Positions 3,424-42,045 of a stretch of DNA of 64,000 nucleotides are shown here, piece after piece. Source of the DNA: a virus (Duplodnaviria; Caudoviricetes); IMG/VR virus record IMGVR_UViG_3300013936_000023, positions 1 to 64,000 of that record. One strand, given 5' to 3'. Both the position numbers and the translations under genes were made by a program. How positions within the stretch are numbered: position 1 is the first letter of the stretch; each line of letters opens with the position of its first letter. The notes under the pieces are model-generated. The model was given only the letters and a program-made list of their open reading frames with translations. It made no database searches and was not told the origin of the DNA.

Positions 3424-6400
3424 TTAAGTTGTCGCATAACTTCTTTGCATCGCCATCTGCTTGAGGCCGTCAACAAACTGCTGGGCATTGCGCACGCTCG
3501 GCAGAGAAACATTGGCCACATTGAGGATGGTATTGCCAGCGCCAGATTTGCTTGCAAACCAACGCGGGTCAGAGCCAATCTTCATCAGGTTGCGCGTAAT
3601 GTCAGCAGGGATGATCCCGTCGCCTTGATTCAATACGCGCAACTCGGGGCCTTGTTCGCCAACCATGGCCAAGCCGCCACGAGCAGATAGCGTACCGCTG
3701 GCATAACCCATATCCGACAATTTCTTCCGCAGTTCCTCATTGCGCTCATGGAGACGCTTACGCTCTTCCTCATCGGCGTCGAACCATGCTTGAGAATTTC
3801 GCGCAATCTCATCCTCCATTCCCATGATTTTGGACTGGTCAGAATGACTAACGCTGCCGCTACTACTCGACGTGTTGTTGCGTCGAGACGAACTGGAAGA
3901 ACTGGAACTTGTCGAACCGGAATATCCAGATGTGTAGCCGTACTTGTTCTTCAGGCGATTCCACATATCTGCTGTGGATTCTCCCTGAATGCCAAGTGCT
4001 TGCATCTTAGCATTGCGCTGACCAATGACGCCCTTAATCCAGTCGTAGCCATAGCCTTTCTTGATTCCCTCTTCAAGAAGTTCACCATAGTCCGTATCTT
4101 TGTCCCAAAGCGGATTGTAAGCGTTGACAATGTCAGCCCAAGCCTCAGCGTCACTTGCATAGCCTTCGCCACTACCAGCCCATTCACCGGGTTGAACGCC
4201 AGAACCAGAACCATAGCCACCAGAACCACCGCCAAGACCAGCCAAGATGCTATTGTACTGGCTCGCAAAACTTTGGAGATTCGCCAAACGCGTCTGCCAG
4301 TTTGCGTTCTCTTGTTCAATGCCAAACATTTGGTCGGCGAGGAGCTTGTTCTGCTGATACTCATACTCGCTGGTCAGATTGCTCCAACCCTCTTTGTATT
4401 CCTCCCAGCGTGCCTTCTCCTCTTCAAGCGCCGCCGTTTCGTTCTTGCGCAGAGTCTCGATATATTCCTTCTCGGCCTTGAGCGAATCCTCAATGTACTT
4501 CTTGCGGTTCTCGTAATCCTTTTGGCGATAGTACGCATTCAGCTCATTTTGGGATTTACTTACAGCATCAGCATCGGCTTGATATACAAACTGGCCATCT
4601 TTGAATACCATCTGCATGGTATTCTTAGCCTTGTCCAGCGCATTGAGCTTTTCCTGTAAGGTAATCTGGTCTTCAACGGCGTCATTCTGAGCTTCCAGAG
4701 CATCAAGTTGCGCCTGAGCGCGGTCTTCCGCATCCTGAAGCATTTGGTCATACTTGTCGTTGATGGCGTCAATTTGGTCTTGCAGTTCCTCGATTTTACG
4801 AGAGGCATATTCGACGTAATAGTCAATGACGCCTTGCATCATCTGCTTCTGCTCGTTTAGAGCATCAGAGACGGAATCAGATACATTGTCAACCGAATCT
4901 TTGGCGGTTTTCTCAACCTCTTTGACAGCGTCCTTGGCTTCTTCCTTATTTTTCTGAGTTTGCTTAGAAGAGCTTGGCGATGTATATGTCGGGACACTTG
5001 TCCCGCCAGTTGGTGTGGTGGTAGAAGCAGACGGCTGATAGAACGACGTCAAGCTACCCCACAAGTTCTTCATATATGCCTGACTTGCTTGACGCATAGC
5101 CTCTTGACTGGTTAATTTCTTGCCAGCGTAATGTGCCTGTTGCATCAAGCCAGTAGCAGATGCTCGAATTTGATTCTGGGCGCTGGTGTCACTCATACCC
5201 ATGACAGCGGCGATAGCAGACGCGCTATATCCTGCCTGAGTCGCCAACTGCTGTAATGCGGCAATCTGCTGGCTGAAATTGAGTTGCTGATTATTGGTTG
5301 CAATCATTTGGGCCGCGAGATTATACATCTCGTTCTTGGCCGTGGTGGTTGTACTTGCTTGTTCAAGAAGTTTGTTGACGTAATTGCTGATATACGTCTG
5401 CGCCTCATTGTACGCAACTTGTGTGCTCTGGAACGTGTTGTACAGCAATTGTTGTTCATTGGTGCAACTTGCGACGCCGCCCTCGACATTCTCCATAGCA
5501 GACGTTAACCGCCCAGCCTCAGCCGTCAACTTATTGTACTCAACAACTTGCTCGCTGGTCAAGGATTTGTTTTGGCTTAGAATAGTCTGATATTTCTGGA
5601 GCTTTAACGTCAGTTGCTCATAATACTTTGCGCCCTCGATAAGCTCAGTAACAGGAACGGTCGTTTCCTTCCCGCCAATACGCTTAGTCGTATAGGTCGT
5701 TTCAGTAGTATAAGCGTTGTCAAGAATAGCTTGAGCCTTTTCGGTCTTGAGCTGCTGGTACTTGTCAATCTGATTCTGAAGCTCGGCGTTTTCCTTTTCA
5801 AGAGCGTCCTTCTCGGCAAGAATCTCCGGCGTCTTGTCATTCCAAGCTATACCGTTGATTTCTTCGAGACGAGCCCTATTCGTTTCAAGTTGCTGAGTAT
5901 CAGATTCAATAGACTCATTGAGTTCGTCAATGTTCTTACGACTGTCTTCGGTTGCCTTCCAGAAATAGCCACCAACAGCAAGAGCCGCAGCTACAGCAAG
6001 AATAACTGGAAGGATACCAGTAAGGACACCACCACCGGCGCTCAACGCCGCAAATAATCCAGACGCACCTTCTTTAGCAAGACTTGCCGCTGCTGCAAAA
6101 TTCTTGAATTGGCTAATAACGGAAGGGATAATCTTGGACGCCTGAAGCAATCCGGTTGCGCCCCAGCCAACACCAGTCAGTAACGTAATCTGCGTGACAA
6201 TGCGACCAAGGTCGGTATTGGCAAGCTGTAAGAATCCATTGGCTAAGTCCAACACAGCTCCAACCAATTTGTCGTCAATGACGTTATTGGCAAGGTCTTG
6301 GAATGTTGCCTTAAGGTTATTCGTCTTAGCCTCAAGCGATTCCATGTATGCCGCATTTTCGTTGATAGCTGAGCCATTGGCATCAAGCGCAAGAGTCAAG

Positions 6401-6673
6401 GCTTTCTCAACGCCCTCAAAGTTCGTGAGAGCTGCGGCGAGATTTGCAGATTGGTTAGCACCTGCTTGCTGATTCAGGTAGTAATCCTTCTCATTGGTCG
6501 TAAGCTCAGGCCAAATTTCTGCAACATCATGCAAGATATCGTAGAGCTTTCTGAGCTGACCCTCTTGGTCATAGATAGCAATATTGTGCTCTTCATACCA
6601 TGCCGTCAGAGCTTTGCCAGTAGAGGAGGATTCGTCGACGATTTGATTCAGACGAGATTGGATGGAAACAAGT
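3424..6673 (-). CDS. Tape measure protein, exon 3
   Basis: The frame of ORF 3424..6534 stays open upstream to 6673 (LVSIQSRLNQIVDESSSTGKALTAWYEEHNIAIYDQEGQLRKLYDILHDVAEIW), a typical TMP core. Long Ala/Leu/Gln-rich helical protein; predicted spliced product 1333 aa. Confidence 0.85.
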
Positions 6674-8229
6674 CATAGTTGTTTACTCAAGGTCGCTACC
6701 CTTGAGTGGAAAGGATGAACCCATCAATCTCATCTTTGTAATCTTCAGAATTTTCAATCTTCCAGAACGGTATTCTCAATAATGGAATGCCATGTGCTTT
6801 ACAATATCCCGTCTTCGCATCGTCATAAGCCACACGTTTTGCCAGATGTTCTTTGGCTTCAATCTTAGTCATGCCGCCCCATGGAATAGCTTTATAATGA
6901 CCGACGCCATCAACTTCTATACAAGCATTCAACTCAGGCAAATAAAAATCAAATGGTAAACAGCGACCAGTATAGCCAACGCAATCCGCAAACACTTTCT
7001 CTTTGATATATTCAACGCCAGACGCCACAAGATACAGCTCAACCAGTTTGGCGATATTCGATTGCTTCATACGGCATTCATTACACTTGAACTTTTTGTT
7101 GTGAATGAAATGCACTAAACTCGTCGTATATTCATTTCCGCAAGAACACCTGAATTTCATCATGGCTTTATCGCCAAGAAATCTTTGGTCTTCAACGACG
7201 CAGTCGCCGCCATTCAACTCAGCAAATCTTCGCATATTGTAGATAGTATATGGATTGTGGACATAGAATCGCTTAAAGCTACTACCGCGAGTCACAGCCG
7301 CCATAGACACGATGCCTCGATAACCTTCAGCGTCTTCGACCCCAACAGATGAATGGTATCGAATGCCGCTGTCACTCAAAATGTGTAACCCAACCTTAGC
7401 CATCATCTCTTCGTATATAACTCTATCATTCGGCTTTCGATGGGGATTATCCTGAGTTGAAGCCTTATAACAAGACGGACAAACCTTATTCTCGTCATGC
7501 TTAAAATCGAGAAATCTCTTCCAATAAGCCTTACCACAACACCCACACACAAACAACAGTTTGCTGTCTGAGTTAATATAATCTCCTTGACTTGACGCCA
7601 GCTTTGTTCCATTAGCCACAAATTTATCAACATAGTGTTGAATATTATACCAAGCCATAGGATTTTTAGAACTAAAGATATGTGGTGCAATCGCATCGTA
7701 TTTCGCTTTGTTCATCACGACTCGCAAAGACCTCATATGTCTATAACCGTCAGCGTCTTCGCATAGCATTTTTTCATCGACACTTCGATAGTCTTCGTCA
7801 AGCAAATTTAACCCAGCTTGCTCGAACATCTCTTTTACTTGTTCATAACTATATCTTTTCATAATTTCCTTTCCCTCACGCTTTCACGTGATGTTCAGAT
7901 TATTTCTTTATCTTCGATTAAGAAGATTCCACCATTTCAATTTAAGGGAATTTCACCCACCACCAAGCATTGTGGCCTTACTCCTGTTGCGGTTACGCCG
8001 CCAATGGGATAATCGTTTGACGCACCTCTATTCGAGGCTTTGCACCCAAGCATCCATTACTTTCAACACTTAGGCTTTTGGCCATATGCCATCTCTATCG
8101 TTTTTAATAGTTTCCCACATTCACGCTCGCCAGTCTTTCAAGGCCACGTTGTAGTGATAGAGCTTTAGGAGTTGCTGGGTTTAGATGGATACAAACAGAG
8201 CATATCACTATACTCTTAGGGACTTGTTT
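6674..8229 (-). mobile_element. Group I intron 2 in tape measure gene (1556 nt, endonuclease ORF in P9 region)
   Basis: P7 pairing GATTA/TAATC and terminal omega-G (AACTATG). The first 11 nt, AAACAAGTCCC, are the exact reverse complement of the ligated junction GGG|ACTTGTTT. Removal restores the frame (ARG-LVSIQ). P9 GNRA hairpin TCACG-TGAAAG-CGTGA. Confidence 0.85.
6696..7862 (-). CDS. Intron-encoded endonuclease, Vsr-like/EDxHD PD-(D/E)XK type with Zn-ribbon repeats
   Basis: C-terminal LPFDFYLPELNACIEVDGVGHY...YDDAK...IPLLRIPFW and repeated CxCG/CxxC modules. Confidence 0.75.
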   Translation of the reverse strand: MKRYSYEQVKEMFEQAGLNLLDEDYRSVDEKMLCEDADGYRHMRSLRVVMNKAKYDAIAPHIFSSKNPMAWYNIQHYVDKFVANGTKLASSQGDYINSDSKLLFVCGCCGKAYWKRFLDFKHDENKVCPSCYKASTQDNPHRKPNDRVIYEEMMAKVGLHILSDSGIRYHSSVGVEDAEGYRGIVSMAAVTRGSSFKRFYVHNPYTIYNMRRFAELNGGDCVVEDQRFLGDKAMMKFRCSCGNEYTTSLVHFIHNKKFKCNECRMKQSNIAKLVELYLVASGVEYIKEKVFADCVGYTGRCLPFDFYLPELNACIEVDGVGHYKAIPWGGMTKIEAKEHLAKRVAYDDAKTGYCKAHGIPLLRIPFWKIENSEDYKDEIDGFILSTQG

Positions 8230-8597
8230 CCCCGTGCCGCCTTAGTGCCAGAACGGGTAATTTCAACGATGCCCGTCATTAACGCCAAGGACTCTTCATA
8301 CGTGTTGTTACCAGTAGCCAACGCCGCAGACGCTTTACCAATATTTGTTGCGAGGTCAGCAGACGATACGGCCATGTTGTTCGAGACGTTGTTGACCGCA
8401 TCAATGATATGCTCGCTATCATCTGCGGTCAAATTGAACGCCTTCATCTGGCTGATGATAAAGTTGGATGCTTCACCAGCCGAAATTTGCTCATCAGCGA
8501 TATTCTGATAGAGCGAGGCCACCTTAGCAAGTTGAGCCGAATCAGCTTCACTGTAACCCGACTTCTTAAACTCGGTGGCCGCTTCAACCATTTCTGA
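8230..8597 (-). CDS. Tape measure protein, exon 2
   Basis: SEMVEAATEFKKSGYSEADSAQLAKVASLYQNIAD...IIDAVNNVSNNMAVSSADLATNIGKA, the conserved TMP domain. Confidence 0.85.
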
Positions 8598-8616
8598 CGT
8601 GGTTGTTTAGTCTTGA

Positions 8617-8949
8617 TTATTTTTTCTCTGGGTCATAGACACCATAGTCATTGTCGTATTTGTCTTGCGCTTTGACTTCGTTAATCATCTTTTGCCGCTC
8701 GTCGGGGTCATCCATGCGTTGCTGAGAGCCAATCATCAAGGCGTTGAGAATAGTCCCGACGAACGTCCAGATGCCAATGGCAACACAAAGATGGTCAGTA
8801 GTCGCGCCAAGATACATGCACAGCGTGAACCAGATGATGTTAAAGATAAAAACACCACCGGCTTTGCCATGTCCGCGCATACAAGCCCCAGCAATACCCT
8901 TGCAGATGCAATAGATGATGCCGACCCACATTCCAATTACTAATACCAT
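8617..8949 (-). CDS. Small membrane protein (about 3 TM helices plus charged tail) inside intron 1
   Basis: 110 aa with three hydrophobic segments and an acidic/charged C-terminus. GGAGG RBS and its own promoter. Confidence 0.8.
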   Translation of the reverse strand: MVLVIGMWVGIIYCICKGIAGACMRGHGKAGGVFIFNIIWFTLCMYLGATTDHLCVAIGIWTFVGTILNALMIGSQQRMDDPDERQKMINEVKAQDKYDNDYGVYDPEKK

Positions 8950-8980
8950 AATTTAACCTCCAATATTTTTTGATGGTTAA

Positions 8981-9009
8981 AATATAACATAGAAGAAAAT
9001 ATTTGTCAA
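8981..9009 (-). promoter_or_regulatory. SigmaA-type promoter inside intron 1
   Basis: TTGACA-17 bp-TATATT with extended -10 TG. Confidence 0.75.
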
Positions 9010-9344
9010 GACTAAATTTCCGAGGGTTTTCAATCCTCGCCTGAGTACTTCTTCGGCCTATAAATTTGGAGGCTCGCCCTGTATACTCGATTGACACACC
9101 GCTCATCACGGCTTCGCGCCCAAGCTGCCCTTTTGTCACGGATAGTATATAATATTCGTGACATAGCGATTGGGTCTTTCAACCATACGCCATCCTTGCC
9201 GTTTTATCGGTTTCCCACATTCACGCTCAAGCTTATCTCATCCTCACGTTGTAGTGGCAAGGCTCTTCAGGCTTTCAAGGGTTTAGGGGCTGTTCTCAGT
9301 GCTGGTTTACCATCCCATCACTCCGGCTCAGACCGATTTGGTTT

Positions 9345-9728
9345 GCCGGTACGCGCTACGGTTTTGCCCATCTCAGATAGGTTCTGGACATAGCTCTCCA
9401 GTCCGCTTCCGCGCAAATCCGAAACTTTCTTAAATTCCGTCATCGCGCCATTCAACGTGTATACTTGCTCAACCATGCTGGAAATTGCGTCAACAGAACG
9501 ACGGAATACCTCGTTCATCGCATTGAATGTCGCCTCAACATCGCCAGCATCTTTATTGACTTGCTGTGTTGCACCAGACATATCATTTAACTCAGCCGTG
9601 ACCGAGCGAATGCCCTTGCCGTCAACCTTGAACGTGACCCTCTTGGCGGCATTGTTGAGTTGCGACTGAATATTGTTTAAGTCAAGTACAACTTTCGCAA
9701 GAATACTATAATCATTGTTAGAAGCCAT
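9345..9728 (-). CDS. Tape measure protein, exon 1
   Basis: 128 codons (MASNNDYSILAKVVLD...MTEFKKVSDLRGSGLESYVQNLSEMGKTVARTG), a TMP N-terminus. Confidence 0.85.
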
Positions 9729-40558: not shown

Positions 40559-40633
40559 CGGGGAGTAAGCCAATGATAGACGGCAGCATTTGGGATGCTG
40601 AGGTTGCAGGTTTGAGTCCTGCCTCTCCGACCA
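40559..40633 (+). tRNA. tRNA-Pro(TGG)
   Basis: Acceptor CGGGGAG/CTCTCCG, anticodon stem CAGCA/TGCTG with loop TTTGGGA, T-arm GCAGG-TTTGAGT-CCTGC, encoded CCA. D-arm is weak. Confidence 0.8.
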
Positions 40634-41968: not shown

Positions 41969-42045
41969 GCTATCATAGCTCAACTGGATAGAGCAGCGTT
42001 CTTATAAAGCGCAGGCCGGTTGTTCGAGTCAACCTGATAGCACCA
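41969..42045 (+). tRNA. tRNA with anticodon TAT (Ile-UAU) on an Arg-like body
   Basis: Full cloverleaf: GCTATCA/TGATAGC, GCTC-AACTGGATA-GAGC, GCGTT-CTTATAA-AGCGC, GGTTG-TTCGAGT-CAACC, ACCA. Confidence 0.85.

Follow-up and report, generated by a model that had tools for sequence, protein, structure and literature searches.

Few features of group I catalysis are as strongly conserved as the U-G wobble at the 5' cut site and its J4/5-J5/4 receptor, and it is on account of both that group I ribozymes engineered for trans-splicing or for permuted-intron circular RNA require a target with a U. The locus considered here lies in a window of 64 kb (the whole stretch of DNA that was analysed, 64,000 nucleotides), taken from a 74.7-kb IMG/VR phage record rated complete, whose host is probably among the gut Clostridia. 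An earlier note on this DNA had claimed that the tape-measure protein (TMP) gene contains two group I introns and that neither has the wobble pair at its cut site. We asked whether the junctions of these introns are correctly placed and, if so, how their 5' splice sites could be recognized.

Organization of the tape-measure gene

The TMP gene occupies the minus strand as five segments, three exons and two introns, with the following layout.

9345-9728, minus strand: TMP exon 1, 128 codons, ending ...ACCGGC; C9345 is position -1 of intron 1 (Gly GGC)
8598-9344, minus strand: intron 1, group IA-type, without P7.1/P7.2; omega-G at 8598
about 9344-9021, minus strand: ribozyme core of intron 1, followed by a promoter and a small ORF
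8230-8597, minus strand: TMP exon 2, starting TCAGA and ending ...CGGGG; PF10145 profile positions 17-135
6674-8229, minus strand: intron 2, group IA2-type; omega-G at 6674
8229-7870, minus strand: core of intron 2, followed by an HNH endonuclease ORF
3424-6673, minus strand: TMP exon 3, starting with ACTTGTTT at 6673

The last base of exon 2, G8230, is position -1 of intron 2 and the second base of a Gly codon, GG/A (a slash marks the junction here and below). When joined, the exons form a single frame of 1333 aa. In protein alignments, the spliced TMP is gap-free over both junctions against the intronless TMPs of the Enterocloster phages PMBT24 and CB473P1 (TVARTG/SEMVE vs TVARTADEMVE at junction 1, KAARG/LVSIQ vs RIARGLRSIT at junction 2), and likewise against numerous alleles without introns from viral and metagenome contigs. 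A scan of genome contigs yielded just two intronless alleles, in a Clostridia MAG and in Agathobacter, which were the nearest genome matches. A near-identity search among phage records gave no match, and a distant search of phage records returned short core matches only. Since read-through meets a stop 8 codons into intron 2, a full-length TMP requires splicing.

Several further features were located inside the introns and elsewhere in the window.

6696-7862, minus strand: HNH-type homing endonuclease of 388 aa in intron 2 (phrog_559, E 5.6e-40; phrog_9084, E 3.6e-23)
8981-9009, minus strand: near-consensus sigma-70-like promoter in intron 1 (TTGACA, 17 nt, TG-n-TATATT; 11/12 matches)
8617-8949, minus strand: 110-aa hydrophobic ORF in intron 1, at the place usual for a homing-endonuclease gene
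40559-40630 and 41969-42042, plus strand: two tRNA genes

In Pfam, the HNH ORF had just a weak DUF2726 match, and the 110-aa ORF matched no Pfam or PHROG family. The latter is conserved in two related loci (L006 and L012), and a third (L007) has a different small ORF after its own promoter-like site.

Guide sequences and the pair at the cut site

Each intron has a guide sequence close to its own 5' splice site (22 nt away at most).

9323-9332, minus strand: intron 1 guide (IGS), UCUGA-GCCGG, P10 part then P1 part, equal to TCTGAGCCGG
8218-8229, minus strand: intron 2 guide, AAACAAGU-CCCU

In each intron the guide is exactly complementary to the ligated junction: TCTGAGCCGG (9332-9323) to CCGGC/TCAGA in intron 1, and AAACAAGTCCC (8229-8219) to GGG/ACTTGTTT in intron 2. 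Both guides occur once in the 64 kb, counting both strands, with 0.12 (intron 1) and 0.03 (intron 2) occurrences expected. P1 is formed by GCCGG with CCGGC in intron 1 and by CCCU with GGGG in intron 2, and each omega-G is accompanied by a P10 pairing: G8598 with UCUGA/UCAGA, and G6674 with AAACAAGU/ACUUGUUU, in which U8222 of the guide forms a pair with A6673 at the start of exon 3. The combination of omega-G and P10 recurs in every relative whose 3' exon is known. As the guides are exact complements of the junctions, unique in the window and in agreement with the gap-free alignment to intronless TMPs, the earlier claim that they fix both junctions holds.

At these junctions the cut-site pair is C-G in intron 1 (C9345-G9327) and G-C in intron 2 (G8230-C8221), as the earlier note had stated. 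The exon ends of intron 2 permit three registers that yield the same mRNA, with (-1, omega) equal to (G,U), (G,G) or (A,A); U occupies position -1 in 0/3 of them, which bears out the claim that no register puts U at the exon end, and omega is G in 1/3. No register yields a U-G wobble in either intron. In intron 1, the sole in-frame option with U at -1, a cut after CGT at 9351, loses two conserved residues and comes without a matching guide. The further claim, that both introns end in omega-G and restore an in-frame TMP, is confirmed by G8598, G6674 and the 1333-aa frame.

An automatic longest-run search proposed rival forms of P1, with AUCGGU from the loop of intron 1 or with a slipped UCCC, which were overruled by P10 contiguity and covariation. 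The P1 loop of intron 1 contains AUCGGUC (9331-9337, minus strand), a near-copy of the exon end ACCGGC that is able to pair with the exon end or the guide and could serve to mimic the exon or to form an alternative P1.

Fold and classification of the introns

A search with the motif GGGTGARAYTCCCTTAAAT retrieved 74 phage loci of an IA2-like family; two loci from a 17-mer scan (L005 and L010) were discarded as chance matches. The fold was tested on an alignment of 16 relatives against a named structure, P1-P9 with a large P5 extension, P7.1 and P7.2, in which 18 helices, among them those of the P3/P7 pseudoknot, contribute 82 pairs. Pairing is seen in 93% of cells, vs 37-45% when the partner is slid, with P3 cells 99% and P7 cells 100% paired. 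In this alignment, 56/82 pairs show changes on both sides, and 0/500 shuffles matched the observed signal. An initial assignment of GUGGGAAAC to P4 and UAAGG to P3' was rejected, as covariation puts P4 at CCCAG/UUGGG and P3 in the 6 nt before UAAA. The core elements are placed as follows.

8168-8189, minus strand: 5' strands of intron 2, with P3 UCCAUC 8189-8184, P4 CCCAG 8179-8175, J4/5 CAAC 8174-8171 and P5 UCC 8170-8168
8045-8055, minus strand: 3' strands of intron 2, with P5 GGA 8055-8053, J5/4 UGC 8052-8050 and P4 UUGGG 8049-8045
7898-8014, minus strand: P7 of intron 2, GAUUA 8014-8010 with UAAUC 7902-7898; two pairs changed on both sides
9043-9088, minus strand: P7 of intron 1, GAGUAU 9088-9083 with GUACUC 9048-9043, from sequence and family alignment

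P2-P6 are common to the two introns and the 3' halves differ, P7.1 and P7.2 being present in intron 2 only. P7 of intron 2 encloses P7.1, P7.2, P3' (GGUGGA 7933-7928) and P8, and the presence of P7.1 and P7.2 between P7 and P3' places this intron in subgroup IA2. P7 of intron 1, which covaries with GACUAU/AUAGUC of its relatives, encloses P3' and P8; as this intron passes from P7 straight to P3' and P8, it is IA-like and not IA2. Against the Rfam model RF00028, intron 2 scored 23.8 bits (gathering cut-off 50) and intron 1 gave no match; unrelated introns in the TMP genes of relatives reached 54-62 bits.

Relatives at the same and other insertion sites

At the site of intron 1 (..T-G/S-E..), relatives share its guide UCUGAGCCGG, which lies opposite an exon ending ...GGU in L012, L007, L064, L091, L105 and others, and opposite GGC in the window, L006, L131 and L173. 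The L012 intron is 96% identical to intron 1 and has U-G at the cut site with the same guide. These comparisons indicate that the C at -1 of intron 1 is a recent synonymous third-position change, GGU to GGC, inside a U-G lineage. Other occupants of this site carry altered guides: L124_s1 has C at -1 (ACAGGC) with the adapted guide AUGAGCCUGU, and where the exon ends in GGG (L037 and L119) the facing G of the guide has been replaced by C (UCAAG-CCCGG and UCUGG-CCCGG). The L012 intron (L012:6738-8928) sits at a recombination boundary, the exon 1 protein being 97% identical to that of the window and the sequence after the intron just 60%.

At the site of intron 2 (..A-R-G/L..), G at -1 faces C in all introns except that of L064, and GG/ is found with CCC in at least 13 phages. 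In L064 the codon is Ala, GC/A, with guide GCC, so the pair is C-G. Judged by these relatives, intron 2 is a member of a site-2 lineage in which the pair is always G-C, or C-G where the codon is that of Ala. The first P10 pair at this site covaries as well (U:A in 9, G:C in 3, G:U in 1). Site-2 introns without an ORF (L008, L037 and L117) retain the fold, which suggests selection for function. One further intron, ambiguous at first, was settled as G(-1) via ARGLRTIGNNI homologs and stands outside the statistics (L096). Covariation of guide and exon was also seen in L111 (ACUGGU with GCCAGU), L089 and L113. Across the family, this covariation indicates that the -1 pair is genuine and paired, in the three forms U-G, C-G and G-C.

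In related phages a single TMP gene can hold as many as four or five group I introns, and 10 or more insertion sites are in use (L009, L033/L112, L037, L113, L114 and others), near residues 95, 128/129, 156/157, 196/197, 209, 234, 236/247, 250/251, 313/324, 322/323 and 364/365. These introns belong to at least two families, some over the Rfam cut-off. At the residue-209 site, L164 (380-400, 1890-1910) may have A at -1 facing a guide G (exon AGCGACA/, guide UAGGUCG, J5/4 UGA); if real, this would be a mismatch at the cut site.

A J5/4 base covaries with the nucleotide at the cut site

The Tetrahymena ribozyme reads the wobble pair with A207 in J5/4 and A114 in J4/5; the counterparts of A207 are A87 in Azoarcus and A83 in Twort (PMC9943679, PMC1891724). 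We compared J5/4 with the -1 nucleotide in 44 distinct introns of the family, hand-curated, with junctions fixed by protein alignment, omega-G and guide. This set comprises TMP genes only, with L164 and L161 (no 3' exon) left out, and hand curation of the junctions could bias it. U is at -1 in 23/44 of these introns and another base in 21/44. The P4-proximal J5/4 base is A in 22/23 of the introns with U at -1, and U or C in 21/21 of the others. In the single exception, L012, U-G occurs together with a C in J5/4, and the coupling is thus less than strict. In the window the corresponding bases are C8050 in intron 2, which covaries with position -1, and C9124 in intron 1.

9124-9126, minus strand: J5/4 of intron 1, AGC, with P4-proximal C9124 where U-G relatives have A

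Among about 450 columns covering the first 300 intron bases, the J5/4 column was the best discriminator, ranking above the column of the guide's -1 partner, and it alone differs in 7/8 sister contrasts. On a maximum-likelihood tree of the family, computed with the guide and J5/4 masked, the non-U state changed 7 times (at least 6-7) and the J5/4 base 6 times; with this number of changes, the non-U state did not have a single origin. Six independent pairs could be drawn on the tree, of which 5-6 were concordant and 0 opposite (sign test, median p 0.031). An attempt to carry the J5/4 rule over to all 74 loci of the IA2 set did not succeed, given their different P4-P6 domains and a lack of known exons. 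By its secondary-structure position next to P4, the covarying base would be the equivalent of the wobble-receptor adenine A207.

[quoted passage not shown]

The earlier note had proposed that the Watson-Crick variants form a subfamily with different splice-site recognition. This proposal is partly supported, and its recognition part gains real comparative support from the loss of the J5/4 adenine in 21/21 non-U introns. The notion of one subfamily does not stand, given that the 3' halves of the two introns differ and that the C of intron 1 appears recent. We consider it probable that the two insertions are true self-splicing introns of group IA, cut at the predicted junctions. In this family, the cut-site pair is not fixed as U-G but set by the codon at the insertion site, with the guide compensating, and introns with a Watson-Crick pair there have also lost the P4-proximal J5/4 adenine. 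Such variants would dock P1 without the classical wobble receptor, most likely through retained J4/5 adenines acting on the Watson-Crick minor groove in an A-minor-like manner, while the contiguous P1-P10 guide would set the cut site.

That the gene is instead spliced at other sites with U-G pairs, giving a slightly different TMP, or is expressed as separate pieces, we regard as very improbable: nothing beyond the general rule of U at -1 speaks for it, no in-frame combination of U(-1) and omega-G has a matching guide, and the TMP length across both junctions is fixed by homologs. The method was capable of finding such solutions, as a U/omega-G solution was always recovered for canonical neighbours (L037 and L033 at 364/365, and L141). 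For intron 2, the exon G run could slip by one register, so that G(-1) pairs with U8222 (GGGG on UCCC) as a reversed wobble. The guide GUCCCU, present in the window and 9 other site-2 introns, would allow this, and an unbiased longest-run search chose the slipped pairing for several site-2 introns. Yet in L008, L148, L113_s2 and L096 the guide base is G, which would give G-G, and the covariation of this base with the first base of the 3' exon is what the unslipped P10 predicts; before the first step, the U can also pair with the intron's own A(+1). We therefore think the slipped register unlikely.

Hardly more probable is a reading in which the non-U introns are inefficient or crippled ribozymes that need a host or phage protein helper, the J5/4 change being decay and not adaptation. 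A C-G pair at the cut site makes P1 undocking about 80-fold faster in Tetrahymena (PMC1891724); Watson-Crick pairs there weaken docking, so that splicing of the window introns may be poor or helper-dependent, and intron 2 does encode a protein. However, compensatory changes are kept in all other helices within the non-U clade, and the ORF-less members imply that the intron need not encode a helper of its own. Moreover, it is one and the same position that is altered in several lineages with the other junction bases unchanged, unlike what general decay would produce.

Under docking without the wobble receptor, our preferred reading, a position -1 that is U, C or G, with one receptor base changing along with it, would amount to a natural double-mutant cycle, and the ORF-less members, such as L008, measure 360-400 nt. 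This reading would also explain insertion inside a Gly codon (GG/N), which is closed to canonical introns. A broader proposition, that a natural ribozyme lineage gave up both U-G and the J5/4 receptor and takes any Watson-Crick pair, including a purine at -1, through several co-evolutions, comes close to our acceptance but stays tentative; if true, the 5' splice site would be chosen by another rule in that lineage.

Comparison with known systems

The motifs AACGACUAUCCC and GGAGUAGGG and the J8/7-P7' block GAAGAUAUAGUC are, we presume, common to td, Twort and the window introns. The phage IA2 introns Twort ORF142-I2 and T4 td also share the order P7-P7.1-P7.2-P3', the omega-G end and the P1/P10 guide. 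In Twort, U-G is read by A83 of J5/4 (PMC1891724), whereas in the window introns the pair is C-G or G-C, and C occupies the matching position.

A precedent exists in the group IA2 introns TMP-IVS1/IVS2 of Bacillus cereus-group prophages (Tourasse and Kolsto 2008, PMC2504315): there too, homologous IA introns occupy several sites of one tape-measure gene, with a conserved core, P1 and guide re-adapted to each site and a homing-endonuclease ORF in some only. The window introns differ in belonging to other phages, hosts (gut Clostridia-like) and sites, and in a divergent P4-P6 that falls under the Rfam cut-off; non-U splice sites are not reported for TMP-IVS1/IVS2 (PMC2504315).

Our search for natural group I introns with G at -1 found no report, though the search was thin and does little to establish their absence. 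C at -1 has been described before, in a large type of bacterial tRNA group I intron (Williams 2020, bioRxiv 10.1101/2020.01.27.920355), which likewise forms a natural, sizeable set without U(-1). Those introns are IC3-type, in tRNA genes and with C only, and, as far as the accessible part of that preprint goes, no link to the receptor is mentioned, whereas the window family also has G at -1 and resides in protein-coding genes.
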